DNA of 59,352 nt from a phage: the sequence record PZ564402.1, one strand, 5' to 3'. Made by a program: the position numbers and the translations under genes. Position 1 is the stretch's first letter. The number at the start of each line of letters is the position of its first letter. Below the pieces are notes generated by a model, which did no database searches, was not told where the DNA came from, and was given only the letters and a program-made list of their open reading frames with translations. Shown here in pieces: positions 4,299-56,810 of this stretch.

Positions 4299-6881
4299 TT
4301 AAACTTCGTCATCCCACTCGCCCGGTACAACTTTACCGACGATTTTTTCCACCTCCGCGTTATGCTTTTTCAATGTTTTCTGCGCCCATTCGGAGTTAAG
4401 TTTTCCAGACTCGTCGTACGCACCTTTGACACGCTTTCTGACGTACACGCGACCGGACTTCCCGCCGAATTTCAGTACGCCGCCCGGCTTAAATCCGATC
4501 TCCATAAGCATGTTTTTGAGGCGAGACGTTTTCGGCATTTCCACATCTTCGGTTTCAAGGAAGGCGTCTCGCAACGATGGTACGAAGATGATGTCGCGGT
4601 GGACGCCCGGCGTTGTCCCGTCACGCAGCATTGATACTACCGCACCTTCTACCCCATCGTTTGACGCGTCGGCCATGATGGAAAACGCTTCGGTGTCCTG
4701 CGGTGCATGGCCTTTGTGGTCAAAGTCCTCGCTGATCTCCCATTCGAGGAACCATTTCTTCAATGCAGGGACGTGGTTGTCGATCGCCCGGTACACGTTC
4801 TTGAAGAAGCGCGAGCGTTCCGCCTTCGACCCGTATACCCGCTCCATGTCCAGATGATTTTCGGCCTGCGTGGACACTACCAGATAACGACGCTGGTTTT
4901 CATCGAGTGGCAACGCGTTAAAGTGGTTAGTGAACATCATTTTACTACTGGTGTTCACGACAACCTTTGGCTTGCGGCCTTTCGGTTCCACCTGAAAACG
5001 GTCATTGGTGATATACTCTTTCTGCCGCTCGATGGCGCTGTAGCGGTCGCCCTTGTCGTACACCTCTTCCACGATTTTCAGGATGTCGCCTTCCGCCCAA
5101 TCACTGAAACGGCCGTTCATCACGGAGTTTGAAACGTAGCCCACGTTTTTGCGTCCTAACATGGCTGACATGAGCACGCCTAACGTCGATTTACCGGAAC
5201 CGTGCGCGCCGCGAATCAGTAACGAGTAGTTGATGCGCTTCGTCGGGTGCTGGATAATCCACGCCATCCAGTCCATAACGTATCGGCGTTCCTTGTCATT
5301 CGGGAAAAGCACGACAAAGAAGTCCTTGATGATCTCCACGGCCTTTTTATCGTACGGCGAAAGCTCGTCGGCAGGCTCCGGAATGGAATCCGGGTCGAAA
5401 GAGTTGAGCCACGTCTTCCCGGACTCGTCTATAAAGAATTCCGGGCCATTTACCCCCGGCTTCGGCTTCCACAAGGTTTCTTCCATATCACCGTGCATCG
5501 CCGGGTAGTACATGGCGTCACAAACGATAGGGATCGGCCTGACCAGCGATGCAAAAGTGATAGGTTTAATCGTTTCTTCCTCGAATTTGCACATATTTGC
5601 GTACGCGAAGTCGAAAGCGCCCTTAGAAATGTAAGAACCGGACGATTTATCGATCAAACAGTCATTTTCTTCCGAAAAAACGAATTTTTTCAGCCAAATC
5701 GGCATTTCTTTTGAGCCATAATCGAAGCCTAATTGCTCCTTTTTATCGTTCGCAGTCATCCGGTAGTTCTTGATCCGCAGGTACGCTTCGGCCGCAACTT
5801 GGACGATCGTCTTACGGGTCATGCCGAAAATCTGCTCTTTGCGGAAGGATTCGGCCCATGCGTTCCAGTCTTTCTCGTCAGTACACTCGGCAAACGCCTC
5901 GCGGTACTCGATGGCCTTCTCTTCCTGCTCGGCTTTCTCGATTTCACGAACTTCGGTGATGATCGAGCCTAAAGTTACGAGGCGGGATGCGTTGTGCGCG
6001 AAGCCCTTATCCCACTTGTATTCGAAATCACCATCGTCGAAGTTGTGCGCCTGCATGGCCCACTCGCGGGCAATGGATTTCGCTTCGTCCTGATCCCGGC
6101 AGGAGATTTGCAGCGCGGCCAGCACCTTGATGTAGTTCTCGTAATCCTCCGGATTCGGGTACTTCATGACAAGATCGCGAAGGTCTTCGTACGTGCCGTC
6201 CCATTTCCGGATACCCGCCGTTGCCGCCCAATCCTCTTCGTCCGCCGTTCCGATGGCTTCGTACCCGTTCATCGGGCGCTTGACCATCGTCCAGCCCTGC
6301 TCTTTGGCGTAACGGTCAAACTCCGCCGCGATTTCACGCGCGGTATCGAGGCTGATCTCTTCGAGGTCGAAATCGGCTGCGTTGTTCAGCGGATTCTCGT
6401 CGTCGAGCCAGTAATAATCGCGGTTGGTGTCCGGGTGGATACCGTACGCGACGAACTGCTGGCCGTCGGCGAGGATTTCAACCGCATGGCGCTGGCCGAA
6501 GTCGTCTTCCCATACGCCGGACTTCACTTTCGAGAATGGCGATTCCGTCCGGAACAGAAAGAGTTTCTTTGGTGCCCGTCCGATACGACATGGCGCGCGG
6601 CCAACATTCTCCAGCACCCAATCCGCCATATGCGCCACGGCGTCTTCATCGTAAACGTCGATGTCAACCGCCGGGGTGTATTTGGTCAGAATCCCGATGC
6701 CGTTTTTCGTGTAGCGTTCCGCCCAACGCTGGATCTGCTCCTTATCGTTAATTGTTCTTTCCCAATCCTTACCGATGGGGCGTTTACCCGCGCCCTTCTT
6801 ATCGGCGTCCGGGGCGTAGATAGGTACAACGGTGTACCCATTCCCCCAAAGCGTTTCGCCGTACTCTTGCCAGTAATTCAT
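4299..6881 (-). CDS. bifunctional primase-polymerase / SF3 (D5-like) helicase, 860 aa
   Basis: N-terminal prim-pol motifs (VDIDVYDED, YGIHPD), Walker A GAHGSGKST in C-terminal half; acidic C-terminus WDDEV. Confidence 0.8.
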   Translation of the reverse strand: MNYWQEYGETLWGNGYTVVPIYAPDADKKGAGKRPIGKDWERTINDKEQIQRWAERYTKNGIGILTKYTPAVDIDVYDEDAVAHMADWVLENVGRAPCRIGRAPKKLFLFRTESPFSKVKSGVWEDDFGQRHAVEILADGQQFVAYGIHPDTNRDYYWLDDENPLNNAADFDLEEISLDTAREIAAEFDRYAKEQGWTMVKRPMNGYEAIGTADEEDWAATAGIRKWDGTYEDLRDLVMKYPNPEDYENYIKVLAALQISCRDQDEAKSIAREWAMQAHNFDDGDFEYKWDKGFAHNASRLVTLGSIITEVREIEKAEQEEKAIEYREAFAECTDEKDWNAWAESFRKEQIFGMTRKTIVQVAAEAYLRIKNYRMTANDKKEQLGFDYGSKEMPIWLKKFVFSEENDCLIDKSSGSYISKGAFDFAYANMCKFEEETIKPITFASLVRPIPIVCDAMYYPAMHGDMEETLWKPKPGVNGPEFFIDESGKTWLNSFDPDSIPEPADELSPYDKKAVEIIKDFFVVLFPNDKERRYVMDWMAWIIQHPTKRINYSLLIRGAHGSGKSTLGVLMSAMLGRKNVGYVSNSVMNGRFSDWAEGDILKIVEEVYDKGDRYSAIERQKEYITNDRFQVEPKGRKPKVVVNTSSKMMFTNHFNALPLDENQRRYLVVSTQAENHLDMERVYGSKAERSRFFKNVYRAIDNHVPALKKWFLEWEISEDFDHKGHAPQDTEAFSIMADASNDGVEGAVVSMLRDGTTPGVHRDIIFVPSLRDAFLETEDVEMPKTSRLKNMLMEIGFKPGGVLKFGGKSGRVYVRKRVKGAYDESGKLNSEWAQKTLKKHNAEVEKIVGKVVPGEWDDEV

Positions 6882-7398: not shown

Positions 7399-7818
7399 AT
7401 GTCTGGTATCTTCGAACAACTGCTGGCTGAACAACAAAAAACTAACACCCTGCTGGAAGGCGTTCTGGCAGCATTGAAAGGCGGCGCGGTGAATACCTCC
7501 GCTGACGCTGGTAGCGAAACCACCGAAAAAACCACCACCACCACCAAAGGCGGTGCTAAGGGCGGCGCGAAAGGCGGTGCAGGTAAAACCGAAACTAAAG
7601 CGGCCAAGCCTAAGCACACCAAAGACGAAGTAGTCGCTGCTGTCGTCGCGGTTAAAGACGCGTTCGGCGCGCCGGAAGCCAAGAAAATCACCGCTCACTT
7701 CGGCCTCGCGAGAGTCGCGGAAGCGAAGGAAGAACACTTCGACGAAATCGTTGAAATGTGTGAAGCCAAACTGGCTGAAAAAGATGAAGGCGGTAACGGC
7801 GAAGAAGACGACGTTTAA
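7399..7818 (+). CDS. low-complexity Lys/Gly/Thr-rich protein with acidic C-terminus (139 aa)
   Basis: GGAG RBS; KGGAKGGAKGGAGK repeats; ends EEDDV; followed by hairpin terminator. Confidence 0.6.
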   Translation: MSGIFEQLLAEQQKTNTLLEGVLAALKGGAVNTSADAGSETTEKTTTTTKGGAKGGAKGGAGKTETKAAKPKHTKDEVVAAVVAVKDAFGAPEAKKITAHFGLARVAEAKEEHFDEIVEMCEAKLAEKDEGGNGEEDDV

Positions 7819-7880: not shown

Positions 7881-8210
7881 GTGACCAGCATTACTTTCAC
7901 CAACGTTTCTACTACAGGCGGCGCAGTTCTCGCGCGCACTTGGGCGGAGTTTCGTTTTCAAATCGGTGATCGCGATGTGCTGTTCAGAGTTACTTCCCCT
8001 GTTTCGAAACACGAAGCGCCGCTGCTCGTAACCCACGCATCATCCGGTCTTCGAGTATGCGACGTCTGGTGGGACGACGTGGCGAAGACTCGCTTTAACG
8101 CAGGCCGCAATAATTACAGCGGGGCAGGCGCTAGGGCATTAGTAGCGACGATTGAGCGAGTCGGCCAACACCGATTCCTCAACGCGATAAAGGCGTATCC
8201 GAATGAGTAG
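7881..8210 (+). CDS. hypothetical protein (GTG start, 109 aa)
   Basis: GGAGAGGA RBS 5 nt upstream of GTG. Confidence 0.5.
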   Translation: MTSITFTNVSTTGGAVLARTWAEFRFQIGDRDVLFRVTSPVSKHEAPLLVTHASSGLRVCDVWWDDVAKTRFNAGRNNYSGAGARALVATIERVGQHRFLNAIKAYPNE

Positions 8211-9543
8211 TAAGTCACTGTTAGTCCGCATCATGCGGGAATTCGGCGGTGGCGGCCACTCAATCTTCGCGCCTTCTGCGTCAGCGCGGTGGATAGCATG
8301 TTCCGGGAGCCTGATAGCCGGGCTTTTCGAGCATGACGAAACCATCTACGAGGCGGCGGAAGGCACGGTGGCCCACGGAATCGCCGAACAATGGCTGCGA
8401 ACGGATGTCCGGCCAACCCATTTAATCGGCACTGTCGAGACGATCACGGAAGGCGATGTCAGTCATGACATCCCGATCACGCGGTCAATGCTCGACGCAG
8501 TTCAGGAATACGTGGACTGGTGCCGATTTGAAGAGGGTGAAATGTTCACGGAAATTCGGGTATGGTTCACAGACCTGATGCCGCGAGCAAACCCGGATGA
8601 ACCTGACGAAGAACCGGAAGAGTTTGTCGCTCAGGGCGGAACGGCGGATAACATCATCATCCGTGACCGCACCTTGATCGTGACCGACCTGAAATACGGT
8701 ACTGGTGTTCAGGTTTTCGCGGAAGGGAACCCGCAGGCGCTACTTTACGCGTACGGTGCGTACCGCGCTTTTGCGGATGAATACGAGTTTGACCGTATCA
8801 TCATCCGGATTGCGCAGCCGCGACTCGACCACTTCGATACGTGGGAAATCACGCTTGACGAGTTGTTGGAGTTTGCGGAGTACGCCCGGGAGCGGATTGC
8901 AGCGGCATGGAGCCTTACCGCGCCGCGCCGCGCATCCCTGAAAGGGTGTCGCTTTTGCCGGGCAGCACATAACTGCGCAGCGATAGCGTACATGATGGAA
9001 TGTGCAGTGGGTGGGGATGTGGAATTCCTTGAAGCCGAATTCGGGGAGGAAGAAATGTCAGTATTGCGTGATGCGCTGGCGCAGGAGTATAAATTCCGGC
9101 GTGCGCAGTTCGGAAACCTGACAACCGAGCAGATGGCTAAGATCCTGCCATACCGCAAGGTGGTCGAAAACTGGTTCTCGCGCCTTGACTTCGAACTGGA
9201 ACGCCGCGCAATGAACGGTGAGAAGGTACCGGGTCAAAAGCTGGTTGAGTCGCGGACAAACCGCAAATTCGCCAACGAGAAAGATGCGATCGCGTTGTTC
9301 AAGTTCCTCGACATCGAAGAGGACAAGTACATCGAGCGCAAACTGCGTACTCCGGCGCAGATGGAAGAAGTGCTTAGGGATGAATTGGGCGTGTCCCGGG
9401 CTGGCGCGCCAAACATTATCGCGGGGATCGTTTACAAGCCGGAAGGCAAACCGACACTGGCACCGCTGACCGATAAGCGGCCACCACTGGACGGCAAGTA
9501 TTCCGGGGCGTGGGACGATGAAGATGATGACGACGAAGTGTAA
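8203..9543 (+). CDS. PD-(D/E)XK (RecB/Cas4-like) nuclease, 446 aa
   Basis: Motifs LIVTDLKYG (D/ExK) and QALLYAYG (QxxxY), Cys cluster CRFCRAAHNC; acidic C-terminus WDDEDDDDEV. Confidence 0.65.
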   Translation: MSSKSLLVRIMREFGGGGHSIFAPSASARWIACSGSLIAGLFEHDETIYEAAEGTVAHGIAEQWLRTDVRPTHLIGTVETITEGDVSHDIPITRSMLDAVQEYVDWCRFEEGEMFTEIRVWFTDLMPRANPDEPDEEPEEFVAQGGTADNIIIRDRTLIVTDLKYGTGVQVFAEGNPQALLYAYGAYRAFADEYEFDRIIIRIAQPRLDHFDTWEITLDELLEFAEYARERIAAAWSLTAPRRASLKGCRFCRAAHNCAAIAYMMECAVGGDVEFLEAEFGEEEMSVLRDALAQEYKFRRAQFGNLTTEQMAKILPYRKVVENWFSRLDFELERRAMNGEKVPGQKLVESRTNRKFANEKDAIALFKFLDIEEDKYIERKLRTPAQMEEVLRDELGVSRAGAPNIIAGIVYKPEGKPTLAPLTDKRPPLDGKYSGAWDDEDDDDEV

Positions 9544-9597: not shown

Positions 9598-10194
9598 ATG
9601 GCCGAGAAATTAGTCCCTGCGAAGAAAGTCAAGAATGGCGTGCTGTATAAATCTGGTCACATCAAGATTTCTAACGTACGTGCTTCTTACCCGCACCTCG
9701 ATAAGCCGTACGGCGGCGAAGACGGCGGCGAGCCGAAATACTCGCTGACACTTTTGATGCCGAAAGAAAGCCACGGCGAGATCGAGAAAATCATCCGCGA
9801 GCAGATCGAAGTCACCAAGAAGAACCACAAGACAGGCGCGCTTAAAGTGGCTCCGTCCATGTTGTTCATCAAAGACGGCGACACCGATTTCCCGGACAAA
9901 CCGGAATGCGAAGGGATGTGGGTTATCTCAGCGCGCGAAAGCAAACGCCCGGATGTGTATAACATCGAGCGCGAAGAGTTGACTACTTCTTCCGAAATTC
10001 TGGAAGAGATCTACGGTGGTTGTTGGGTGTCTGTCGTCATCCGTCCGTGGTCGCAGGAAAACAAATTCGGCAAACGCGTCAACGCCAACCTGATTTCCGT
10101 TCTCAAACGCAAAGACGACGAGCCGTTCGGTGAAGGTCGCGTTGACACGTCTGATGCGTGGGATGAAGACGAAGATTGGGAAGACGAAGTGTAA
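9598..10194 (+). CDS. ssDNA-binding protein, T7 gp2.5-like (198 aa)
   Basis: N-terminal ASYPHLDKPYGG...YSLTLLMP resembles gp2.5 YAYIAKPDYG...YKVDLTIP; acidic C-terminal tail DAWDEDEDWEDEV. Confidence 0.6.
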   Translation: MAEKLVPAKKVKNGVLYKSGHIKISNVRASYPHLDKPYGGEDGGEPKYSLTLLMPKESHGEIEKIIREQIEVTKKNHKTGALKVAPSMLFIKDGDTDFPDKPECEGMWVISARESKRPDVYNIEREELTTSSEILEEIYGGCWVSVVIRPWSQENKFGKRVNANLISVLKRKDDEPFGEGRVDTSDAWDEDEDWEDEV

Positions 10195-10220: not shown

Positions 10221-10244
10221 GCCCGCCGTGTGCGGGCTTTTTTC
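10221..10244 (+). terminator. rho-independent terminator (GCCCGC-CGTGT-GCGGGC + T6)
   Basis: Perfect 6-bp stem and T-tract right after SSB gene. Confidence 0.65.
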
Positions 10245-10260
10245 ATATAGGAGCGTTGAC

Positions 10261-12300
10261 GTGACCGATTGCATTAATCTTGACTATGAATCCAGAAGCC
10301 GGGTGAACCTTAAAACGAACGGCTTCGACCGTTATTCGAATGACGAATCGACGAAAGTGCTGATGGGCGCGTGGTCGATCAACGGCGGCGCGGTGCAGCA
10401 CGTAGACCTTCATCGCGGCAAAAAGTTGCCCGGCGAACTGCGTGAAGCGCTGGAAGACCCGGACGTGGAGAAGTGGGCCTTTAACGCTCAGTTCGAACGC
10501 GTGATAACCCGCCGGGTGCTCGGCATTAAGACGCCGTACAAAGCGTGGCGCTGTACGATGGCGATGGCGTATATGCTTGGCTTCGCGGGCGACCTGCTGT
10601 CGGTCGGAACACAATTGGGATTGCCGGAAGACAAACTGAAAGACCCGGAAGGCAAGCGCCTGATCGACCTGTTCAGCAAGCCGCAGCGCGTCACGAAGAA
10701 AAACCCATTTGAGTGGCGCAACGAAGCGACCGACCCGGAAGACTGGTGGCACTTCTGCCGATACAACGTGCGAGACGTTGAAACCGAACTGGCGATTAAA
10801 GCGCGCCTGATGCGGTACCCGATTCTGGACGCCGAGTGGGATATGTACGCGCTGGATCAGTTCATCAACGACACTGGCGTGATGATTGACCGCGAATTCG
10901 CGTACTCGGCGCTGGCACTCGCAGAAGCGCGCAAACCGCAGATTATCGAAGAAATGGCCGACATTACTGGCCTGAATAATCCAAACTCCCCGGCGCAGTT
11001 AACACCGTGGCTCAAAGAGCGCGGCTATCCGTTCAGTGACCTCCGCAGCGACACCGTCAACAAAGTTATCCGTGAAGCCGATGAAAACGGCGTTGACCCG
11101 GACGCGATCCGCGTGCTGCGGATGCGACTGAACAGCGCGAAAAACTCCCTGTCCAAATACCAGACCATGATTGACGCGGCTGGCGAGGATGGCCGTTTTC
11201 GCTTCTCGCTGCAATTTGCCGGGGCGAGTCGTACGAACCGTTGGGCTGGCCGTCGAATCCAGACCCAAAACCTGCCGAGAACGCCGAAGCTGATTGAGGA
11301 CGTGACCGACCTGTCCATCGTCAACAAGATGATCCACCAGCGTGACCTTGATGCGCTGACGCTGTATGTGGGCGAGCCGATGGACGCGCTGGTGGGCTGC
11401 ATCCGCTCCGCCTTCATCCCGACGCCGGGCTACAAGTTTATCGTTGCCGACCTGTCTTCCATCGAATCCGTGGTTATCGGTTGGCTGACGAACTGCAAAT
11501 GGTTCATGGATACGCTGGCGGCCAAGCACGACCTTTACCGTTCATTCGCGGCCCACTGGCTGCACCTGCCGTACGAAGAAACGAAACCGCACCGCTCGAA
11601 AGCCAAACCTGCAACCCTCGGCGCGGGCTATCGCCTCGGCGGCGGCCACATGGATGACAATGGCAAGAAGACCGGGCTGTGGGGTTACGCTGAAAACATG
11701 GGCGTACACATGACGCAGAAAGAGGCAGAAGAGTCGGTACAGGCGTTCCGCGACCTTTGCCCGGAAATCGTTCAGGCATGGTATGGCCTCGAAAACGCGG
11801 TGTTCAAGGTTATCCGCACCCGTCAGGCCGTCGTGTGGGGCTGTCTGATTATCGAATACACAAAACCATTCCTGACCATCCGTCTGCCGTCTGGACGCAA
11901 AATGTATTACTTCCGCCCGCGTCTGGTCGAGCGCCAGATGACGGTTCAGAAGGGGCCGAAGAAAGGCGAGAAGTACACAAAGACCAACTTCCAGTACGAA
12001 GGCAAGGTGGAGGGCAGTGGCACCAAGTGGGGCAAGATCTACAGCCACGGCGGTAAGCTGGTGGAAAACATCGTTCAGGCACTGGCGCGCGACGTGCTCG
12101 CCGAAGGTCTGAAAAAGGCGCACCGCATGGGCTTCCGCATCGTCATGCACATCCACGATGAAATCGTAACCGAAGTGCCAGAAGACAGCCCGCTGACAGT
12201 GGACGACCTGATCTCCTGCATGGTGGCCGAACTGCCGTGGGCCGAAGGTCTACCGCTTGGCGCTGCCGGGTGGGAAGGATATTTCTACCGTAAGGATTAA
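10261..12300 (+). CDS. family A DNA polymerase with 3'-5' exonuclease domain (GTG start)
   Basis: Exo I DxE (LDYESRS), polymerase motifs RRIQTQNLPR, KPATLGAGY, HIHDEIV; AGGAG RBS 7 nt before GTG; ATG at 10228 rejected as it sits in the terminator hairpin. Confidence 0.85.
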   Translation: MTDCINLDYESRSRVNLKTNGFDRYSNDESTKVLMGAWSINGGAVQHVDLHRGKKLPGELREALEDPDVEKWAFNAQFERVITRRVLGIKTPYKAWRCTMAMAYMLGFAGDLLSVGTQLGLPEDKLKDPEGKRLIDLFSKPQRVTKKNPFEWRNEATDPEDWWHFCRYNVRDVETELAIKARLMRYPILDAEWDMYALDQFINDTGVMIDREFAYSALALAEARKPQIIEEMADITGLNNPNSPAQLTPWLKERGYPFSDLRSDTVNKVIREADENGVDPDAIRVLRMRLNSAKNSLSKYQTMIDAAGEDGRFRFSLQFAGASRTNRWAGRRIQTQNLPRTPKLIEDVTDLSIVNKMIHQRDLDALTLYVGEPMDALVGCIRSAFIPTPGYKFIVADLSSIESVVIGWLTNCKWFMDTLAAKHDLYRSFAAHWLHLPYEETKPHRSKAKPATLGAGYRLGGGHMDDNGKKTGLWGYAENMGVHMTQKEAEESVQAFRDLCPEIVQAWYGLENAVFKVIRTRQAVVWGCLIIEYTKPFLTIRLPSGRKMYYFRPRLVERQMTVQKGPKKGEKYTKTNFQYEGKVEGSGTKWGKIYSHGGKLVENIVQALARDVLAEGLKKAHRMGFRIVMHIHDEIVTEVPEDSPLTVDDLISCMVAELPWAEGLPLGAAGWEGYFYRKD

Positions 12301-12301
12301 C

Positions 12302-12589
12302 ATGGCCGAGCCGATAATCAGAGAATCGAAGGTTGAAAAGCGCTGCTGCGAATACGCGCAGGGCCGTGGGTGGTGGGTATCAAAATTCACCTCCCCCGGT
12401 AAAAAAGCCGTCCCGGATCGTGTGCTGATCCGTGGCGGTATTGTGCTTTTTATCGAATTCAAACGCCCCGGCGAAGAACCAACGGCGCAGCAGTATCACC
12501 GCCATAAGGAAATGCGCAAGGCAGGGGCAAACGTGACATGGGTGGACAATTTTGCAGACTTTAAAAACTACATTATCGCCTTTGAGTAG
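12302..12589 (+). CDS. VRR-NUC domain nuclease
   Basis: Small PD-(D/E)XK-type core FIEFKRPGEEPTAQQ; starts 2 nt after polymerase stop. Confidence 0.6.
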   Translation: MAEPIIRESKVEKRCCEYAQGRGWWVSKFTSPGKKAVPDRVLIRGGIVLFIEFKRPGEEPTAQQYHRHKEMRKAGANVTWVDNFADFKNYIIAFE

Positions 12590-14111
12590 AGCGCTCGCGT
12601 ATTGCCTGCGGACGGTTAAACTGAACCGCAGCGACATGCACGACTATCAGGACGAAGGCGTCCAGTTCATCAAAGACCATCCGTACTGCGGCATGTTCGT
12701 AGACCTCGGCTTGGGTAAGACTGTCATGACCGGGACGGCCATGCTAGACCTGATCGCGGACGGCGAAATCAACAAAGTCCTCGTCGTCGCGCCGAAGCGA
12801 GTGGCCCGTACCGGGTGGCCGACGGAATTCGACGAGTGGGGCCATCTGTGCTTCTACAAGATGTCGATTATCGCCGGAAACGCCAAAGAGCGCGCAGCGG
12901 CCGCGAGTAAGGACTGCCATTTTTACACGATCAGCGTCGATAACATCGCGTGGCTGTGCGAGCACTTCAAGACGAAATGGCCGTTCGACGCCGTGGTGCT
13001 GGACGAGTCGAGCATGTTCAAATCCCACACCTCGCAGCGCTTCAAACTGCTGCGCCGGGTGCGGAAGTACATCAAACGGATCGTCGAGTTGACGGCCACG
13101 CCTGCGGCCGAAGGGTACATGGGTATCTTCTCGCAAATTTACCTGCTGGACGAAGGCGAGCGCTTTGGCTCCACCATCGGCGGTTATCAGGACAACTACT
13201 TCACGCAGAACCGCTACAACTTCAAATGGAAACTTCGCCCCGGTGCGGAAGACGAGATTATTCGGAAGATTTCTGATATATGTTTAGTCATGAAAGCGGA
13301 AGACTACCTTGACATGCACGAACCGAATTTCGTTCCTGTCCCGGTCGAGTTAGACGGGGAGACGGCCGAGCGGTACCGCATGATGGAGGAAGAGAGCCTC
13401 GTCGAGATTATGCCGGACGATTTCGATGAACATCTGGATGACCCAATCGTGATCGAAGCGGAGCAGGCCGCGTCTTTGCAGTCGAAGCTATTGCAGATGT
13501 GCTCAGGCTTCATCTACGACACGAAAATCGTTGGCATAACGCAAGACGACAAGGTCATTAAGCAGAAGGACACGTACAGGCTGCACGACCTGAAATTCGA
13601 TGCACTGGAAGAACTGCTGGAAACCACGCTGGCCGATAAAAACGTGCTGATCGCCTATCACTTCAAGCCGACCCTCGAACGACTGAAAGAGCGGTTTAAA
13701 GATCTGGTGGTCATGGATGATGACGGTAAGTGCATCAAGAAGTGGAACGCCGGAAAGATTCGACTGCTGGCCGCGCACCCTCAGTCAGCGGGACACGGTT
13801 TAAACCTCCAGCATGGCGGCCACGTCATCGTCTACATCGACAATCCGTGGTCACTCGAACGCTTCCTGCAATTCAATGGCCGATTGCACCGTCAGGGGCA
13901 GAAGTACCCGGTTACGATCTACCAGTTCAAAGCCATGCTGCGAACACCGAACGGGCTTCTGGCCGAGACGGCGGACGACGTAGTCATACAGGCGCTGGTC
14001 GAAAAGGAAGACGTGCAGGACGCGTTCTTCGAACTGCTCGAACGTATCAAAGGGCGCATCAAACGCCGCAAGAAATCGAAAAATAAAGGGGTATGGGATG
14101 ACGAAGAGTAA
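12552..14111 (+). CDS. SNF2/SF2 family helicase (start uncertain: TTG 12552 or ATG 12636)
   Basis: Q-motif HDYQDEGV, Walker A GLGKT, DExx-like VVLDES, helicase C motifs; C-terminus VWDDEE. Confidence 0.75.
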   Translation: MQTLKTTLSPLSRALAYCLRTVKLNRSDMHDYQDEGVQFIKDHPYCGMFVDLGLGKTVMTGTAMLDLIADGEINKVLVVAPKRVARTGWPTEFDEWGHLCFYKMSIIAGNAKERAAAASKDCHFYTISVDNIAWLCEHFKTKWPFDAVVLDESSMFKSHTSQRFKLLRRVRKYIKRIVELTATPAAEGYMGIFSQIYLLDEGERFGSTIGGYQDNYFTQNRYNFKWKLRPGAEDEIIRKISDICLVMKAEDYLDMHEPNFVPVPVELDGETAERYRMMEEESLVEIMPDDFDEHLDDPIVIEAEQAASLQSKLLQMCSGFIYDTKIVGITQDDKVIKQKDTYRLHDLKFDALEELLETTLADKNVLIAYHFKPTLERLKERFKDLVVMDDDGKCIKKWNAGKIRLLAAHPQSAGHGLNLQHGGHVIVYIDNPWSLERFLQFNGRLHRQGQKYPVTIYQFKAMLRTPNGLLAETADDVVIQALVEKEDVQDAFFELLERIKGRIKRRKKSKNKGVWDDEE

Positions 14112-14667
14112 TGCGCCACTGGCAACCCGGAATCGCCGCTCTAACGCGCCGGACGCCGACACAGAAGCGATGATCTTTCAGGGCTGCAACATCACGCAAC
14201 TGGCAAAACTGTTCCGCATGGAGCGCCGGGACATCACGCCGAAAATCATGGATGTCCCGCCTATCGGCGAGCGTGGCGGGTACCCGATCTACGCGGTTCA
14301 CGAAGTGGCCCCGTACCTCGTTAAGCCGCTGTACGATGTCGAGACGTACCTGCGCCGCATGAATTTCAAGGATCTGCCGAAGGAGTTGTCGAAAGAGTTT
14401 TGGGCCGGGCAGCGTGCAAAGCAGGACTTCGACATCAAAGCTGGCAACCTGTGGGAAACAGAGAAGGTGATCGAGCACTTCGGCGAGGCGGTGAAGGTAC
14501 TGCGCATGTCGATGCTGCTCATTCCCGACACGCTGGCGCGTCAGGCCGGACTCAGCGAGCCGCAACGTCAGGTCATCACGTCATCCATTGACGCCATGCT
14601 GAACGACCTGTCGAGCGCGCTGATCGAGAAGTTCAACGGCGACGAGGTGGACGACGATGAAGTTTAA
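14098..14667 (+). CDS. terminase small subunit, Nu1-like winged-HTH (189 aa)
   Basis: NITQLAKLFRMERRDITPKIMDVPPIGERGGYPIYAVHEV resembles lambda Nu1 N-terminal DNA-binding domain; directly upstream of and overlapping TerL; C-terminus DDDEV. Confidence 0.55.
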   Translation: MTKSNAPLATRNRRSNAPDADTEAMIFQGCNITQLAKLFRMERRDITPKIMDVPPIGERGGYPIYAVHEVAPYLVKPLYDVETYLRRMNFKDLPKELSKEFWAGQRAKQDFDIKAGNLWETEKVIEHFGEAVKVLRMSMLLIPDTLARQAGLSEPQRQVITSSIDAMLNDLSSALIEKFNGDEVDDDEV

Positions 14668-16732
14668 CAGCATCGCGCAGATTATCAGTTCGGTGGCCGA
14701 GCAGTTACGGCCGCCAATGCGTATGACGGTGGCCGATGCGGCCGCCAAGTATCGCTACGTCAACCAACCCGGCGCATACGTCGGGGATTGGCTTAACTCG
14801 ACGACGCCGTACATGGTCGAGCCGATGAACATGATGAACAGCCGGGCATACGACAAGATGGCCTTTGTCGGCCCTGCGCAGTCCGGTAAAACCGATGCGC
14901 TGATCCTGAATAGCATTGTCTATTCAGTGAAAGTTGACCCGATGGATCTGATGGTCTACTGCCCGACGTCAACGGCCGCGCGCGACTTCTCGATGCGACG
15001 TGTAGACCGTCTTCACCGCCATAGCCCGAAGGTGGGCGAAATGCTGATGAAGAACCGCGACGCCGACAACAAATTCGACAAACACTACGTCACAGGCATC
15101 ATCCTGACGTTGAGTTATCCGTCAGTAACCGAACTGGCCGGGCGTCCCGTTGGCCGCATCATCATCACCGACTACGACCGTATTGACGACGACATCGGTG
15201 GCGACGGTAACGCCTTCGACCTCGCATCAAAACGTACGACGACCTTCGGGTCGTTTGCCATGTGTGCAGCCGAGTCATCACCATCGCGCCCGATTAAAGA
15301 CCCAAGCTGGATTAAGCGCACGCCCCACGAAGCCCCGCCGTGTGACGGGATTGTCGGCCTGTACAACCGAGGCGACCGCCGCCGCTGGAAATGGCCGTGT
15401 CCGCATTGCGACCAGTATTTCGAAGGTACCTTCCAGCTTTTGAAGTGGAACACGAAAGACGCCGATGGCAACCCTCTAACCAACCTCGAAAAGTCGGAGA
15501 CAGTGCGCATGGCCTGTCCACACTGCGGCTGCGAAATAGACCCGGTTGATAAGTATGAAATGAACCTGTGGGGGATGTGGGTGCCGGAAGGCTGTCATGT
15601 CAACGAGTTGGGCCAACTGGCCGGGGTACCGATGCGCTCGTCGTTCGCGTCCTTCTGGCTCCGCGGAACGGCGGCCGCATTCATCACATGGCAGAAACTG
15701 GTTCTGAACTACCTCGATGCGATGGATGACTACGAGCGTACGATGTCCGAAGAGTCCTTGAAGAAATTCTGGAACAACGACATGGGCGAACCGTACGTGC
15801 CGAAGGCGATCGAGACGGTACGCGTTCCGGAAGCGCTGAAAGCCCGCGCCGAGAAGTGGCCGGAACAGACGGTGCCGAAGAATGTGCGGTTCTTGGCGGC
15901 CACGGTGGACGTGCAGAAGCATAGCTTTGAAGTGTCGGTGCATGGCGTGGCCCCCGGCTACCCATTCGACACCTACCTGATCGACCGCTTCAACATCACG
16001 AAATCGCGCCGACTCGATGACGATGGCGACCCGAAAATCCTGCACCCGGGCGCGTACCTCGAAGATTGGGATCTCATTGAAACCGAAGTGATGAACAAGA
16101 CGTATCCGCTGTACGATAATTCTGGCCGTTCGCTGCCGATCAAGATGACCGCGTGCGACTCCGGTGGTGAAGCCGGGGTAACGGGCAACGCGTACGAATT
16201 CTTCCGGAAACTGCGGAAGGAAGGGAAAACCGGGCGCTTCTGTCTGGTGAAGGGCGACCCGAAAGCGAACAACCCGCGCACCCGCGTAGCGCTACCGGAC
16301 TCCAACCAGAAAGACAAGAAAGCCATCGCACGCGGCGACGTTCCGGTGCTGATGATTAACTCGAACGTGATGAAAGATAGCCTGAACGGCCGACTGGACG
16401 TCGTGGAGCCGGGCAAAGGCATGTACCACATCCCGAACTGGATGGGCGACGCGGTATTCGCCGAACTGTGTACGGAGACGCGTGACGAGAAAGGCTGGCA
16501 CAACCCATCCCACGCCCGAAACGAAACGTGGGACTTGGCGTATTATTTATTAGGTATTTGCGTCAGTGGCCGCGTGCTCGGGATTGAGCAGATAGATTGG
16601 GATAACCCGCCATCATGGGCGGCCGAGTGGGACGATAACAGCATGGTTATTTTACCGCAGAGCGATGAACCTATTGATGCACCGAAAGATACCGAATACA
16701 GTTTCGAGAAACTCGCAATGGCGTTAGCATAG
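14657..16732 (+). CDS. terminase large subunit (lambda gpA-like)
   Basis: Walker A GPAQSGKT, size 691 aa, position upstream of gpW-like and portal. Confidence 0.9.
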   Translation: MKFNSIAQIISSVAEQLRPPMRMTVADAAAKYRYVNQPGAYVGDWLNSTTPYMVEPMNMMNSRAYDKMAFVGPAQSGKTDALILNSIVYSVKVDPMDLMVYCPTSTAARDFSMRRVDRLHRHSPKVGEMLMKNRDADNKFDKHYVTGIILTLSYPSVTELAGRPVGRIIITDYDRIDDDIGGDGNAFDLASKRTTTFGSFAMCAAESSPSRPIKDPSWIKRTPHEAPPCDGIVGLYNRGDRRRWKWPCPHCDQYFEGTFQLLKWNTKDADGNPLTNLEKSETVRMACPHCGCEIDPVDKYEMNLWGMWVPEGCHVNELGQLAGVPMRSSFASFWLRGTAAAFITWQKLVLNYLDAMDDYERTMSEESLKKFWNNDMGEPYVPKAIETVRVPEALKARAEKWPEQTVPKNVRFLAATVDVQKHSFEVSVHGVAPGYPFDTYLIDRFNITKSRRLDDDGDPKILHPGAYLEDWDLIETEVMNKTYPLYDNSGRSLPIKMTACDSGGEAGVTGNAYEFFRKLRKEGKTGRFCLVKGDPKANNPRTRVALPDSNQKDKKAIARGDVPVLMINSNVMKDSLNGRLDVVEPGKGMYHIPNWMGDAVFAELCTETRDEKGWHNPSHARNETWDLAYYLLGICVSGRVLGIEQIDWDNPPSWAAEWDDNSMVILPQSDEPIDAPKDTEYSFEKLAMALA

Positions 16733-21558: not shown

Positions 21559-21852
21559 ATGCCAAAACGTAAAGTTCTCCAGACCGTCATCGTTTACCGC
21601 GACGGCGCGCGTATCAAGCCTTCCATCGGCGAGATCTTCGATTTCAAACAGGCCGAACTGGACAGCATCAACAAAATCAACCCGGACGCCATTGGCCGCC
21701 CGGTGATGGAAGTTGACGTGGAAAATCAGGCAGCGCAGGAAGCCGCAGCGCAGCAGGCGAAAGCTGAAACGTCCAAAAAAGACGAGAAGGCCGACGGTGC
21801 TAAGAAAAACGCCAAAGACGATAAAAAGTCTGGCGCGGAAGACGAAGTCTAA
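21559..21852 (+). CDS. hypothetical head-associated protein, Lys/Ala-rich with acidic C-terminus
   Basis: ORF between capsid and adaptor genes; ends AEDEV. Confidence 0.5.
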   Translation: MPKRKVLQTVIVYRDGARIKPSIGEIFDFKQAELDSINKINPDAIGRPVMEVDVENQAAQEAAAQQAKAETSKKDEKADGAKKNAKDDKKSGAEDEV

Positions 21853-52032: not shown

Positions 52033-52703
52033 TTGGATGCCTTTAAAATGTTAGAGAATTCAACGATGTTGACAAGGTTATGCTGACGTCCGCTGTTCGA
52101 TCTGGCCCGGCTGGCCGTCTCCATTACCCGGGGATTCATTTCAACGCGCGGCGTGCGCCCGGTACCGTATTGATCCATGCTGCTCATGCGGTCAACGCAG
52201 ATGCTGTACATCTGGCTGGCCGTCATCCAGTTACCCATCGTATTGATGAAAAATTCCATCGCCTGCAATGCGTCGAGCGCGTAGACCATCGTGGCCGCGT
52301 TGTCCGTGTACAGCACGTACGCGCCGACGGACTGCACGACCTTATCAACGCCGCTCATGTACTCGGCGATCCACTCCGGCGGCACTGGAGGAACCGCACG
52401 ACGTTCACCGCTCGCAGGGGTACCGTACGGATAGGCGAAGGCCGGGCTGGCCGAAACGCGACGTCCGGTAGGCGTGGTCGTCACCGTTGCTTTCGGCTCG
52501 TCTTTAGGCAGATTCTGGAGGCAGGCCGGGCCGCCTTGCCAGCGCTTCCAGACCGTTTTCTTCGGCTCGTCGGACTCCGGCGCGGTGCATGGTGGTGGGT
52601 CGATGTCATTCGCGTCCCATGTCTTCTGACAGTCCCGGCAATAGAATTGGTCACTATGCTGCACGACTGATAAGTGGCTTCCGCCAGTGGCTTCGATTCT
52701 CAT
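52029..52703 (-). CDS. hypothetical early protein (start at internal ATG MRIEATGG)
   Basis: GAAGGGGAAG RBS; ATGA overlap with upstream gene stop. Confidence 0.5.
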   Translation of the reverse strand: MRIEATGGSHLSVVQHSDQFYCRDCQKTWDANDIDPPPCTAPESDEPKKTVWKRWQGGPACLQNLPKDEPKATVTTTPTGRRVSASPAFAYPYGTPASGERRAVPPVPPEWIAEYMSGVDKVVQSVGAYVLYTDNAATMVYALDALQAMEFFINTMGNWMTASQMYSICVDRMSSMDQYGTGRTPRVEMNPRVMETASRARSNSGRQHNLVNIVEFSNILKASK

Positions 52704-53446
52704 ATCTCTACTTCCCCTTCGGTTAAAATGCGAAACGCGCCGCCGCCGACTTTCCAGCCCTGCCACACGTCGGCCAGAAGCGCCGCCCGGTACTTCCGGC
52801 GGAACACGTTGTAAATCATGTCCCAATTCTCACTCGGCAGGTCAGACGCGATACCACCGCTCTCCCACGCCCAATCACGCGGCGACTGCGTCAGCCATTT
52901 CAGCGGAGGACGGGGGTAGGTGTACGGATTCGCCAGACCGCAGGCCACCAGCCCGCGTTTAATCCATGCACGTTGCCACCATAAATCGTGAACCGTCTTC
53001 CCGGCGATGAATTCTTCGTCCAGCATCGCGCACAGGATCGTCATGGCGGCCTTTTCTGCGTTCATGGGTACGCCAATGTCGTCCCAATCTTCCAGCGCGG
53101 CCCTGACGCCGTCAGCGCTGCCGTCGTCGTTGCTGGTGGATGAACGGTCATGCAGGATGACGTCGAACACCATGAACGGGAACACGACCTGTTCGCCGTT
53201 CCGCGTGTATTTCGGGTTAGGCTCGCTGAACATAGCCGAGTACAGACGGCGGATGTGGTCTTCGAGATCCGGGACAAACCCGGTAAGTGGTGCGCCGTCG
53301 TCAGCGTTGACCATTTCGAGGTCGGTGCCGTTGGTGCGGATCAGGCAGCGTGGCCCGTATGGCAGGGGGAAAACGTACAGCACTTCTTTCCCGATCAACG
53401 CTTGGTTGAAAGGCACGAATTTCATTACGTGGGTCTTCATCGGCAT
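52700..53446 (-). CDS. hypothetical early protein (248 aa)
   Basis: AAAGGAG RBS; first gene after promoter 53470-53498. Confidence 0.55.
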   Translation of the reverse strand: MPMKTHVMKFVPFNQALIGKEVLYVFPLPYGPRCLIRTNGTDLEMVNADDGAPLTGFVPDLEDHIRRLYSAMFSEPNPKYTRNGEQVVFPFMVFDVILHDRSSTSNDDGSADGVRAALEDWDDIGVPMNAEKAAMTILCAMLDEEFIAGKTVHDLWWQRAWIKRGLVACGLANPYTYPRPPLKWLTQSPRDWAWESGGIASDLPSENWDMIYNVFRRKYRAALLADVWQGWKVGGGAFRILTEGEVEI

Positions 53447-53469
53447 GACTCCTTTGTTATGGTACGGGA

Positions 53470-53498
53470 ATATTAGTCGTACACGCGACGTACGTCAA
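53470..53498 (-). promoter_or_regulatory. early promoter, conserved family (-35 TTGACG, -10 TAATAT)
   Basis: Conserved spacer TACGTCGCGTGTACGAC; intergenic. Confidence 0.6.
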
Positions 53499-53635
53499 TA
53501 ACTTTATTCGAGGCAAAAGAAAGCCCGCGTAAAGGGATTGCGGGCTTTTGGAAGGTGGCATCCGAAGATTACCACTGGCTTAAAGCGGACAACGCAGGAG
53601 CCGATAAGGAAGCACTATGCCGAGTCCGCAGTTAA

Positions 53636-53935
53636 TCATATGTCGGGGTTACTGTAAATAAGATTCCAGTATTTGTACTCCTTCAAGTCCAGTTCAACGA
53701 CACAAGGGTCATCCAGCGCGCTCAGACAGGTGCCATAGTCCTCGACAAAGACGCAGGAGGACTCCGGATGATGCAGCAGGCGCACCCGGCGGTAGTTCAG
53801 GTGCCATTCCGGGCTGAACACATGGTTCTCCGGCTGGCGTATCAGCATGATCTGGCCTGTCGTTCTGACCTGCCAGTATTGGTCTACTTGGGGCGTGGCA
53901 TAGGCTCCCATATTGTTACTCCTTTTTGTCCGCAC
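53636..53935 (-). CDS. hypothetical early protein (99 aa)
   Basis: ORF. Confidence 0.4.
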   Translation of the reverse strand: MRTKRSNNMGAYATPQVDQYWQVRTTGQIMLIRQPENHVFSPEWHLNYRRVRLLHHPESSCVFVEDYGTCLSALDDPCVVELDLKEYKYWNLIYSNPDI

Positions 53936-54149
53936 TATCCCGGTAAACGCGGGTGCCCATCTTCCCGTAGATCTGGTCTTGCAGCGTAAAACGGATGGAC
54001 AGGCGGATGTTAAGCCGATAGCCCATGCGACGCAGATAGCCGAGATCCTGCGGCTTCACGCCCTCGATAAAGAACGACTCGCCGTCCTTCATTCCGAGCA
54101 GAAGTTTTTCGTGAGTTTCACGCACGCTTTTGTCGGTAGTCGCGGCCAT
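53916..54149 (-). CDS. hypothetical early protein (77 aa)
   Basis: ORF. Confidence 0.4.
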   Translation of the reverse strand: MAATTDKSVRETHEKLLLGMKDGESFFIEGVKPQDLGYLRRMGYRLNIRLSIRFTLQDQIYGKMGTRVYRDSADKKE

Positions 54150-54151
54150 TG

Positions 54152-55225
54152 TTAAACCTCGTCGTCGTCTTCGTCGTTCAGCGTTCCGGTGTACTCAACA
54201 ACCTGCCCGGCCTCGTCCAGCACGCTGATCACCGCACGCAGGGACTTATCGAGTTGGAACAGGTTCGCCATCATGGTCAGGAACTGGCCGCCATCGGTGC
54301 CGTAACGTTCGAGCGTGGCGTCGTAGTTCGCATCGACGTCGGCCTCGCCGATATGGATACCGGACAGGATGGCTTTGTCGGACAGGCGGAAGTACACGGT
54401 GTCGATGCCCGGGCATTGCGTATCGACTTCGAGATCCAGTGCGCGGACAGTCCAGTGGCGGGACAGCAGGTCAACCACCGCCTCGTCTTTGAAGATGTCC
54501 GTGTCCTTCATCTTAACGTCGTCACCATCGTCGTGTTTCAGGTGGATAAACGCATCGCCCTTGATGCCGTCCTGCTGGCCGAGAACCGCGCGCTGCATTA
54601 ACTGGCGCAGCTCATACTCGCTCGGCAGGAGGTGTTCGACGGGCCATGTGCCGAGCGCGGTACGGATCAGCGCGCTGCACTCTTCTGCCGTCTTCGCGCT
54701 CGACGTGAACACGTACACGAACGGGGCGGACAGGATGACGTTGACGCGGGACGGGCGGATAGGCGCGTATTTCAGCATTTCCGCTTCCACGTCGTCCTTC
54801 ATCTGCGCCCAATCCTTGCGGTTCGGCTCCCAACCCTCGATCTCTTTCTCCCGCAACGCGGCCATGCGCTTCACGACTTCATTTCGTACGCTGACGCCGG
54901 GCAACACACGTTCGCGCTTTTCGATCTGGAAGACGATGGCGTTTGTCCCGGGGATGGCGAGCGCAAACTTGCTGTCAACCTCTTCGCCGTACGCTGCAAA
55001 GCCCATTGTCTTGTAAGACGCCTCCGGCGGATCTGACACTTCATGCTTTTCGAGTGCATCGCTTAACGCTCCTTTAGCGAAAGACGTCACCGCCTCTTCG
55101 TCAACGTTCGGCAGATTCAGGATCAGGCGGTGCAGCGGCTTGACCTTCTCGTTACCGTCGTTGGCCGCGTCGTACAGCGCGCCGAGGTGCAAGATAATGG
55201 CTTTCTCATAACCCTTGATTTTCAT
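54152..55225 (-). CDS. RdgC-like recombination-associated protein with acidic C-terminal tail
   Basis: Segments VLPGVSVRNEVVKRMAALREKE and AEECSALIRTALGTWPVEHLLP resemble E. coli RdgC as I recall it; ends NDEDDDEV. Confidence 0.5.
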   Translation of the reverse strand: MKIKGYEKAIILHLGALYDAANDGNEKVKPLHRLILNLPNVDEEAVTSFAKGALSDALEKHEVSDPPEASYKTMGFAAYGEEVDSKFALAIPGTNAIVFQIEKRERVLPGVSVRNEVVKRMAALREKEIEGWEPNRKDWAQMKDDVEAEMLKYAPIRPSRVNVILSAPFVYVFTSSAKTAEECSALIRTALGTWPVEHLLPSEYELRQLMQRAVLGQQDGIKGDAFIHLKHDDGDDVKMKDTDIFKDEAVVDLLSRHWTVRALDLEVDTQCPGIDTVYFRLSDKAILSGIHIGEADVDANYDATLERYGTDGGQFLTMMANLFQLDKSLRAVISVLDEAGQVVEYTGTLNDEDDDEV

Positions 55226-55568
55226 GCTCTATGGCTCCTACGTTAATTAAATTGGCTGGTGCTCCGTGGTACATGGATTGCGCTGCATGGAACATCGCGG
55301 CGCGTAGTGCTTCTTTGGCCGCCCGAAGGCCCGCCATTGATTCAGCGTACTGGTCGCTGACCGTGTTATACGCCGCCTCGTCGTTGTCCAGCGTGGCGAG
55401 GTCGAGCATTTTGGTACTATGGGCCTGCACGTCGTCTTCCATGTCCTTGAAAAACGTCTCAAGGGCAGACAGTTTGCAGGTGATTTGGTCTAACCGGACT
55501 TTGCGCAGTTCTTGGTACTGCACGCGAACGAATTCAATGCCTTCCACCAGCCACCTCCACGACGACAT
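55206..55568 (-). CDS. hypothetical early protein (120 aa)
   Basis: ORF. Confidence 0.4.
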   Translation of the reverse strand: MSSWRWLVEGIEFVRVQYQELRKVRLDQITCKLSALETFFKDMEDDVQAHSTKMLDLATLDNDEAAYNTVSDQYAESMAGLRAAKEALRAAMFHAAQSMYHGAPANLINVGAIEHENQGL

Positions 55569-55869
55569 TCTGCACTTCCGGGCATGGCATATTCGTCATG
55601 GCCCAATCCAGAAACTTCACGATGTACATGCGCATGGCCGCACATTCGTCCGCGCCACGGGCCTTGCCGTGCTTCGCGATGGCCGGGTCGCCGGACTGAT
55701 AGAAGGTCACGCGGTGATTCGTGGCAGACGACACCTTGATCCCGGTGTGCGTGGCGTGGATGGTCACGCTGTAGATCCGCTCGATAGCGCGGAACGCCGG
55801 GACGACGTCGATGCGGCCTTTCGGGTGCATGGCGTTGTTCACCATCAACGCGGTATTAGTCGGCTGCAT
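55534..55869 (-). CDS. hypothetical early protein (111 aa)
   Basis: ORF. Confidence 0.4.
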   Translation of the reverse strand: MQPTNTALMVNNAMHPKGRIDVVPAFRAIERIYSVTIHATHTGIKVSSATNHRVTFYQSGDPAIAKHGKARGADECAAMRMYIVKFLDWAMTNMPCPEVQNVVVEVAGGRH

Positions 55870-56296
55870 TCAGCGGTTCCTCTTTCAGACGGTAGGTGAT
55901 GGTGTCCTGGCGAGTCGCGTCGATTTCCAGTTCAGGCATCTGCCCGGTGATCAGGCGGGACGGCGTCAGCACGGCGGTGCGCAGGCCGTTCTCGAACATG
56001 ATGTTGGCCGCCGTGACCAGCGAAATGCTTTCGATATGGTCTTGGGTCTGGTCGAGGCGGCGCTGTAGCAGTTCTACCTTCTCGGCGTTCTCGTCCGGAA
56101 GGTCGAAGGCGGCACGCAGCCCGGCGATCAATGCGATGGCGTCCGCGCGGGTCAGGGGGGTGGCGATCTCGGTGTCACCGTTGTCCTTCTCGATGTAGAT
56201 CTCGCCCTCTTTTTGGCCGGGCTTCTTATAGATAAAGGCCGTACGGGCAATGTCGCGTACCGGACTCAGTTCAATAGGGTGGTGCGTTGTTTTCAT
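55856..56296 (-). CDS. hypothetical early protein (146 aa)
   Basis: ORF. Confidence 0.45.
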   Translation of the reverse strand: MKTTHHPIELSPVRDIARTAFIYKKPGQKEGEIYIEKDNGDTEIATPLTRADAIALIAGLRAAFDLPDENAEKVELLQRRLDQTQDHIESISLVTAANIMFENGLRTAVLTPSRLITGQMPELEIDATRQDTITYRLKEEPLNAAD

Positions 56297-56367
56297 CGGT
56301 GTGCGTCCTATAGGGTGTCAGGTCAAAAGGGTGGTACGCCATTTTTCAGGCGTGCCGTCCTACGTTT

Positions 56368-56739
56368 TTAAACTTCGTCGTCGTCCGCGACGTCGGTGGC
56401 CGTACAGGTTACGACGGCCTGAATGAACATGCGGCCAGACGGGTAAGTCACCAGCGCGGACTCCATGCTGAACCGTTGGCCGTGGTGCTTCATGGCATTC
56501 CGGATGGAGGAATTTAGGCTGGCCCGCATCTTCGCTTTGAGGGCATTGGCCTCGTCCTGTACCTGCGAAAGCGTACGGTCAAGCGGGAGTTCTTGGGACA
56601 GGGTGTACACGCCACCGACTTCCAGCGCAATGAGGTTCCCCACGACGCTGTACACGCGCACGCGTGACGGCAGTTCAACATCCGGCTCGGTCGTCATCAT
56701 TGCGCCAGTCAGTTCGGCCGGGCTTAGTTCTTTGCTCAT
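56368..56739 (-). CDS. hypothetical early protein with acidic C-terminus (123 aa)
   Basis: GGAG RBS; first gene after promoter 56782-56810; ends DVADDDEV. Confidence 0.5.
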   Translation of the reverse strand: MSKELSPAELTGAMMTTEPDVELPSRVRVYSVVGNLIALEVGGVYTLSQELPLDRTLSQVQDEANALKAKMRASLNSSIRNAMKHHGQRFSMESALVTYPSGRMFIQAVVTCTATDVADDDEV

Positions 56740-56781: not shown

Positions 56782-56810
56782 ACAATAGTTCTACACGCGA
56801 CGTATGTCAA
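56782..56810 (-). promoter_or_regulatory. early promoter, conserved family (-35 TTGACA, -10 TATTGT)
   Basis: Conserved spacer TACGTCGCGTGTAGAAC; drives leftward early operon. Confidence 0.55.

Follow-up and report, generated by a model that had tools for sequence, protein, structure and literature searches.

The RdgC homologue of a Chi-like phage bears an acidic C-terminal tail that is shared with replication and packaging proteins and co-varies with them in its last residue

The window analysed in this work (sequence record PZ564402.1, 59,352 bases) is the complete genome of a Chi-like siphovirus (Casjensviridae, Chivirus). An RdgC-family protein encoded on its minus strand ends in an acidic run closed by valine, and seven further proteins of the same genome, among them the primase-helicase, an exonuclease, the protein that binds single-stranded DNA (SSB) and the small terminase subunit (TerS), end in the same manner. 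When related phages are compared, the last residue of these tails is uniform within a genome across unrelated proteins and differs between lineages, in which it is V, I, L, F or M. Near-identical tails with a last residue that changes in step across lineages suggest one common partner, and because this residue co-varies within genomes across lineages the tail behaves as a common docking peptide. We consider it fairly probable that the tails form a docking network of the kind described for phage T7, extended here to recombination, packaging and early proteins and with RdgC among its clients.

All open reading frames of the window were scanned for the ending [DE][DE]V, which is present in the following eight proteins (the structural prediction for RdgC was made with AlphaFold2, AF2):

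54152..55225, minus strand: RdgC-family protein of 357 residues, ATG start, TAA stop (PF04381, PDB 2OWY/2OWL, AF2/Foldseek)
54155..54178, minus strand: C-terminal tail of RdgC, NDEDDDEV, of which residues 353-357 alone are predicted to be disordered (AF2)
4299..6881, minus strand: primase-polymerase / D5-type helicase of 860 residues, tail GEWDDEV (PF09250, PF08707, PF19263)
7399..7818, plus strand: phrog_7721 protein of 139 residues, function unknown, tail GEEDDV (PHROG match)
8203..9543, plus strand: DUF2800 / PD-(D/E)XK (Cas4-like) exonuclease, tail WDDEDDDDEV (PF10926, 238.6 bits; PF12705, 24.6 bits with a cut-off of 22)
9598..10194, plus strand: SSB of the Enc34 ORF6 / T7 gp2.5 type, tail WDEDEDWEDEV (PF10991, 107.5 bits; PDB 5ODJ, E=5e-117)
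14098..14667, plus strand: TerS, tail GDEVDDDEV (phrog_141, PF07278)
21559..21852, plus strand: small DUF7443 protein of the head module, tail SGAEDEV (family match; the homologue of phage Seifer ends AADEEV)
56368..56739, minus strand: DUF7609 protein of 123 residues, first gene of its operon, tail DVADDDEV (PF24582, 120.8 bits)

Seven of 73 greedy-called genes end in this way (eight when that of the phrog_7721 protein is counted), against an expectation of 0.08 (Poisson P=4e-12). In the full-length AF2 model of the SSB the tail reaches a predicted local distance difference test score (pLDDT) of 54-60. Two further proteins have variant endings:

12552..14111, plus strand: SNF2-family helicase, variant tail VWDDEE, acidic with the terminal aliphatic residue absent (PF00176/PF04851/PF00271)
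52700..53446, minus strand: phrog_6886 protein, tail EGEVEI, a possible member of the tail set (PHROG match; EEDIEV/EEDVEI in relatives)

Three proteins encoded among the tailed ones are without a tail:

10228..12300, plus strand: family A DNA polymerase (PolA), tail-less, candidate receptor (PF00476)
12257..12589, plus strand: VRR-Nuc-like endonuclease, tail-less, ending NYIIAFE (PDB 4QBO, E=7e-11, and 4QBN, E=7e-8; phrog_93, E=4e-27)
14657..16732, plus strand: large terminase subunit (TerL) of the GpA type, tail-less (annotation search)

The original prediction had proposed an acidic docking tail common to the members of a recombination toolkit, namely RdgC, a PD-(D/E)XK nuclease, a gp2.5-like SSB and a VRR-Nuc enzyme. 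This holds for RdgC, the exonuclease and the SSB and fails for the VRR-Nuc nuclease. As a mark of such a toolkit the tail had to be given up: it is also present on the primase-helicase, TerS, the phrog_7721 protein and the DUF7443 and DUF7609 proteins, and the DNA polymerase is devoid of it. The tail is shared more broadly than proposed and co-varies in its last residue; that it serves docking is suggested by homology and by this co-variation.

Co-variation was studied on 80 SSB-anchored loci from IMG/VR, with SSB identities from 100% down to 36%, for which the C-termini of the orthologues were tabulated. Dereplication at under 75% SSB identity resulted in 39 lineages. Of the SSB homologues listed from public data, 120 of 120 have an acidic run at the C-terminus, and the residue that closes it is L in 72, I in 35, V in 9 and M in 4. 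Uniform codes, that is one and the same terminal residue on the different tailed proteins of a genome, are V in Chi-like phages, L in L024/L064, L026, L035, L051 and L053, I in L029, L037, L044, L049 and L063, 'GL' in L055 and F in L079/L084. Over the 39 lineages, within-genome pairs were concordant in 132 of 170 cases compared with a permutation mean of 67.4 (sd 5.7, maximum 94), and none of the 10000 permutations reached the observed value. At least 5-6 independent coordinated switches are required on a neighbour-joining tree of the SSB. Counted by lineage, the tail is present on the SSB in 36/39, on TerS in 27/31, on the exonuclease in 22/37, on the primase-helicase in 16/30 and on the phrog_7721 protein in 12/12 of those encoding it; the SNF2 helicase carries a full tail in 11/38, the DNA polymerase in 0/28 and TerL in 0/23. 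In Klebsiella phage Seifer, which belongs to a different genus (Yonseivirus), the orthologues keep [DE]3V although the preceding residues diverge, and the DUF7609 protein, at 50% identity, still ends PEDDEV.

RdgC follows the terminal-residue code of its own genome, apart from that of the SSB in two mixed genomes, where it sides with TerS. Among its homologues, those of close relatives have V as the last residue, and the three most distant ones have I or L. When 30 RdgC-anchored loci were paired with the SSB loci by contig name, RdgC ended in V in 16 of 16 V-coded contigs, in I in two I-coded contigs (L106, L108) and in L in three L-coded ones (L113-115). Phage BUCT551 (code I) has an RdgC ending in EEDDGEI. 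In the Maxdohrnvirus Pseudomonas phage vB_Pae-SS2019XI (L087, code L) RdgC ends TEDDDL and adjoins a ParB-like 'partitioning protein' ending TDDDDL, and the open reading frame after RdgC ends EYDDL (259-1275 and 2999-3529 for the latter two genes); these L-type tails indicate that the set of clients differs between lineages. A profile search of 1.84 billion representatives returned 2,287 RdgC relatives, 847 of them at E<=1e-10. An acidic run with a hydrophobic end, mostly DDEL, is present in 143 of the 150 best-matching phage-type representatives out of these 2,287 (~95%). Since they carry the tail and E. coli RdgC is without it, the tail is a long-standing feature that sets a large phage-type RdgC subfamily apart from the cellular protein.

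The open reading frame at 54152 to 55225 is a genuine phage RdgC homologue; gene and family assignment are already known and are found in many GenBank records. Its boundaries match the annotation of the depositors in related phages (e.g. Season12 gp59, 'RdgC-like exonuclease'). The similarity to RdgC claimed originally was borne out by formal searches: Pfam PF04381 is matched with 67.7 bits (cut-off 25, E=1.4e-18) by residues 51-330 on positions 19-292 of the 298 of the profile, phrog_724 with E=4e-79, and the crystal structures 2OWY and 2OWL by sequence alone with E=1.7e-8 and E=1.5e-5, respectively. The AF2 model, computed as a monomer from 25 homologues (pLDDT 89.8, predicted template modelling score 0.85), has the base, centre and tip domains of the RdgC fold. 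Foldseek aligned it to 2OWY and 2OWL with target-normalised template modelling (TM) scores of 0.81 and 0.80 (E about 4e-21 to 5e-21), and the following match had an E-value of only 4.5e-3. The database label 'exonuclease, recombination-associated' was rejected: no nuclease domain or motif was recognised, family and structure matches are to RdgC only, and the label is historical. Positions 53000-57000 share 96-98% identity with Escherichia phage ECO111 5-P, with Salmonella phages ST-118 and iEPS5 and with ~110 further records. GenBank entries of 1.5-3 kb such as OR850247.1 and OR849517.1, which bear the names of Staphylococcus, Listeria or Enterococcus phages, are 97-98% identical to the Chi-like RdgC region and are probably contaminant or mislabelled contigs.

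Bacterial RdgC binds DNA non-specifically and restrains RecA functions (E. coli; PMC11077077). The phage protein shares Pfam family and fold with its counterparts from E. coli (2OWL) and Pseudomonas aeruginosa (2OWY), and presumably forms the same ring-shaped, DNA-binding and RecA-restraining dimer (PMC11077077). In the RdgC family, the subunits of this ring meet head to head and tail to tail around a basic pore. It is only ~24% identical to E. coli RdgC over 218 residues, is 54 residues longer, and carries the additional acidic tail with its terminal Val, whereas the tail-less E. coli protein ends ...LIEGLGGEAQR. Unlike its bacterial relatives, it is encoded in a leftward operon of a lytic phage.

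The closest precedent for a set of such tails is T7. Its gp4 docks through acidic tails on two basic patches of gp5/thioredoxin, and the tail of gp2.5 is a competitor for this polymerase. In both phages an SSB of the gp2.5 fold and a replicative primase-helicase have an acidic C-terminus closed by one hydrophobic residue, and a family A polymerase is present. T7 contains just two proteins with such tails, gp2.5 (...DEDGDF) and gp4 (...SNDTDF), as we verified, and both end in Phe, whereas at least eight are found here, including RdgC, the Cas4-like exonuclease, TerS and proteins of unknown function. Moreover, the helicase is of the PrimPol/D5 type and not of the gp4 type, the tails close with Val, a residue that changes from lineage to lineage, and the polymerase can here be named as a candidate receptor by analogy. 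The SSB in the window has a near-identical orthologue (E=5e-117) in ORF6 of the Enterobacter/Hafnia phage Enc34 (5ODJ/5ODL). There, 16 of the last 29 residues are D or E, and the tail packs on the neighbouring SSB and controls discrimination between single- and double-stranded DNA; the published work regards it as belonging to the SSB only and is silent on the same peptide in other phage proteins. The tip of E. coli SSB, DDDIPF, exemplifies how a short conserved C-terminal peptide organises many proteins of DNA metabolism around one hub. In that system one peptide carrier serves many pocket-bearing partners, whereas here the peptide carriers are many. Clamp-binding motifs are closer in logic to the tail set, but a clamp is not encoded here and the peptide is acidic.

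The docking peptide would comprise the acidic run, the C-terminal aliphatic side chain and the carboxylate, and a single phage-encoded receptor pocket would co-evolve with the tails. In its most specific form, to which we assign even chances, this amounts to a lineage-specific 'C-terminal tail code': one phage-encoded pocket reads an acidic peptide with a defined aliphatic end on up to ~10 proteins and so brings replication (primase-helicase, SSB), recombination (Cas4-like exonuclease, RdgC), packaging (TerS) and several uncharacterised early proteins into physical contact at a single hub, receptor and clients co-evolving. It would hold for Chi-like phages and for many of their relatives. Tails of another lineage would then not be read. 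A receptor encoded by the host is unlikely, as the code cannot be predicted from the host: V is found in the Klebsiella phages Seifer and KPN N98 but L in Klebsiella phage N133, and among Aeromonas phages BUCT551 uses I and the SSB of 13AC503A ends in L.

By analogy to T7, the tail-less DNA polymerase would be the most likely receptor. Its apparent absence from several lineages in BLAST searches did not stand as an argument against it, as the slot holds a divergent phrog_1252 polymerase; a polymerase is thus always present and remains a candidate. In these loci (L051:6012-8033, L045:9128-11260, L054:6199-8385 and L042:1666-3798) the PolA slot between SSB and VRR-Nuc encodes a protein of 670-730 residues for which Pfam returned nothing at E<=0.001 and BLAST no similarity to Chi PolA; the match to phrog_1252 ('DNA polymerase') is strong and that to family A PHROGs only weak, which makes this a poorly described polymerase group. 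Alternative receptors would be the surface of the SSB and, at least for TerS, TerL. The SSB body is the second candidate because crystals of Enc34, T7 and two DUF2815 proteins show the proximal part of the tail lying against the concave sheet of a neighbour (842 Å^2 buried). RdgC would be recruited via its tail to the replication and recombination machinery of the phage and compete there with the SSB and other clients. The most speculative steps, which draw on homology only, follow from here: the DNA-encircling RdgC ring would limit RecA-type strand exchange on phage single-stranded DNA and gaps, and this restraint would favour a route via the phage exonuclease, the annealing SSB and VRR-Nuc.

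Several observations weigh against a common docking peptide with a single receptor. A convergent-substitution scan for columns that follow I-versus-L switches in SSB, PolA, TerL, VRR-Nuc, exonuclease, primase, TerS and SNF2 helicase gave no clear receptor column; the terminal residues alone formed strong columns, and position 293 of TerL and position 182 of the SSB are weak leads. AF2 placed the tail tip of neither RdgC nor the SSB with confidence, and the last 11 residues of the SSB are disordered in the 5ODJ crystal, so that the tip has never been seen bound. The permutation control leaves part of the shared ancestry in, 38 of the 170 pairs are discordant, and exonuclease, primase or SNF2 helicase are without a tail in many lineages. 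In L038, SSB, phrog_7721 protein and SNF2 helicase end in F but TerS and RdgC in I, and in L023, SSB and phrog_7721 protein end in I but TerS and RdgC in L. As far as RdgC is concerned, what it does to RecA is extrapolated from the E. coli protein, to which it is ~24% identical, and the model is that of a monomer, whereas the functional form would be a ring dimer.

One alternative dispenses with a common receptor altogether. As has been proposed for T7 gp2.5, T4 gp32 and the Enc34 SSB, each tail might act in cis as a DNA mimic that shields the DNA-binding surface of its own protein, and the likeness of the tails would reflect a generic need of DNA-binding proteins. Nearly all identified tailed proteins indeed bind DNA (primase-helicase, nuclease, SSB, TerS, RdgC and the ParB-like protein), and removal of the tail from the Enc34 SSB unmasks binding of double-stranded DNA. 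Yet proteins with different folds and DNA surfaces have no reason to share an identical last residue that switches together in 5-6 lineages. The tail of RdgC extends only ~8 residues past the folded domain, which is short for reaching the central pore, and polymerase, TerL and VRR-Nuc bind DNA too without bearing tails. We therefore hold an exclusive role in cis to be unlikely.

More improbable still, in our estimation, is that two or more receptors with usually the same residue preference exist, one for SSB, phrog_7721 protein and SNF2 helicase and another, e.g. TerL, for TerS and RdgC. The splits in L038 and L023 speak for it, as does that in Klebsiella phage N133, in which four early-operon proteins including RdgC end D[DE]LI and the replication proteins end DEL/DDL. 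TerS C-termini, furthermore, usually contact TerL. The split is confined to three lineages, however, and the clients agree in most genomes, which is unexpected for independent receptors; mixed genomes may also be caught in transition, with a single pocket that is permissive for a time. The paired loci with mixed codes are L109/L038, L110/L023 and L117/L024, and such genomes may either have more than one receptor or represent evolutionary intermediates.

The tail could also be a C-terminal degradation or turnover tag, read by a protease or adaptor so that early and middle proteins are kept at coordinated levels. Bacterial proteases are known to recognise substrates by C-terminal tags whose last residue is defined, and the tailed proteins of DNA metabolism belong together in time, but known bacterial C-degrons are non-polar or basic and not poly-acidic. 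A host protease would predict a code that follows the host, yet Klebsiella phages carry V or L; the sole annotated phage protease is the head-maturation protease, and the SSB, abundant and needed in stoichiometric amounts, is an unlikely target. All this renders a degradation tag very improbable.

To an artefact of chance, amino-acid or GC composition, Shine-Dalgarno or other nucleotide motifs or gene conversion we give practically no credence: the last codons of RdgC, GAG GTT TAA, do precede the next start codon closely and look like a Shine-Dalgarno sequence (a ribosome binding site is annotated there in Season12), but seven of nine tails contain GAA-GTN, and downstream of most tails comes a terminator hairpin or a spacer >30 nt, the enrichment has P=4e-12, GC ranges overlap among the V, I and L codes, and synonymous codons for the terminal residue (TTG, CTG, CTT and CTC in L035) as well as stop codons differ within genomes, which points to a constraint on the amino acid and not to a nucleotide motif or gene conversion. 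In the window itself, nine of nine tail-bearing genes (including that of the SNF2 helicase) terminate with TAA compared with 41 among the 73 genes of the genome (a chance of about 0.006). As the stop codons of tail genes vary in other lineages, this uniformity may have to do with how strongly the genes are expressed and not with the tail.

Many tails contain a second element, a Trp followed by acidic residues, as in GEWDDEV, AWDDEDD.. and DAWDEDEDWEDEV (genes 4299-6881, 8203-9543 and 9598-10194). The SNF2 helicase carries this element alone (VWDDEE, and WDDEDD in Yonseivirus), and in an I-coded clade primase, nuclease and SNF2 helicase end ..WDDE, ..W.D or ..EEW with the terminal aliphatic residue absent. 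T7 gp4 likewise contains DW upstream of the F at its end. Two docking determinants may be present in the tail.

The genes which had been predicted to lie alongside rdgC are all encoded in the window but are not its neighbours. Exonuclease, SSB, PolA, VRR-Nuc, SNF2 helicase, TerS and TerL follow each other in this order in a rightward replication module. The genes for exonuclease, SSB and VRR-Nuc are separated from that for RdgC by ~44 kb of the linear map, or by ~12 kb if counted across its ends, and lie on the opposite strand and in another transcription unit, so that co-transcription with RdgC does not apply. For the VRR-Nuc-like reading frame a Pfam search gave nothing at E<=0.01; its PDB matches 4QBO and 4QBN are structures from the VRR-Nuc paper (PMC4103454). 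Judged from family assignments, recombination-dependent replication by exonuclease, annealing-type SSB, junction resolvase and RdgC is plausible.

The leftward operon starts with the DUF7609 gene and contains, apart from RdgC, otherwise small proteins of unknown function. A predicted promoter precedes it:

56782..56810, minus strand: sigma-70-like promoter TTGACA-17-TATTGT upstream of the DUF7609-to-RdgC operon, a consensus match only

A GC-rich hairpin of 13 bp at 56328-56361, between the DUF7609 gene and the next gene, is possibly an attenuator. The label 'RecT family protein' on a DUF7609 orthologue (NC_052991.1) was rejected, as a RecT match is absent in Pfam, PHROGs and PDB. Solved structural relatives were looked for with the DUF7609 and phrog_7721 proteins and none were found. 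The phrog_6886 protein has a conserved C-terminal motif of its own, EED[VIL]E[IV] in V-coded and ..EEDVI, EEDLI or EEDFI in I-coded genomes, which resembles the main tail but is distinct from it. The gene at 50246-50932 (minus strand) matches Pfam Dam (PF05869, 104 bits) and a DNA methyltransferase PHROG; some RefSeq records name it 'phosphoadenosine phosphosulfate reductase', a label that probably spread from a fused PHROG family.

While the RdgC gene is a matter of routine annotation, the co-varying tail set goes beyond routine and represents a variant of the T7 tail-docking principle; in a search of open-access papers and preprints, no earlier account was found of phages of this kind in which proteins other than the SSB share the tail. 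It extends the T7 paradigm, with its two replisome proteins and a tail that docks to the polymerase, to clients distributed over the genome, which comprise proteins of recombination and packaging as well as unknown ones. The V, I, L, F and M codes with their several independent switches constitute a natural co-variation experiment and make the question of the receptor directly testable. The tail also provides a first functional handle on the DUF7609, DUF7443, phrog_7721 and phrog_6886 proteins, and it suggests a route by which phage RdgC may be brought to its site of action.

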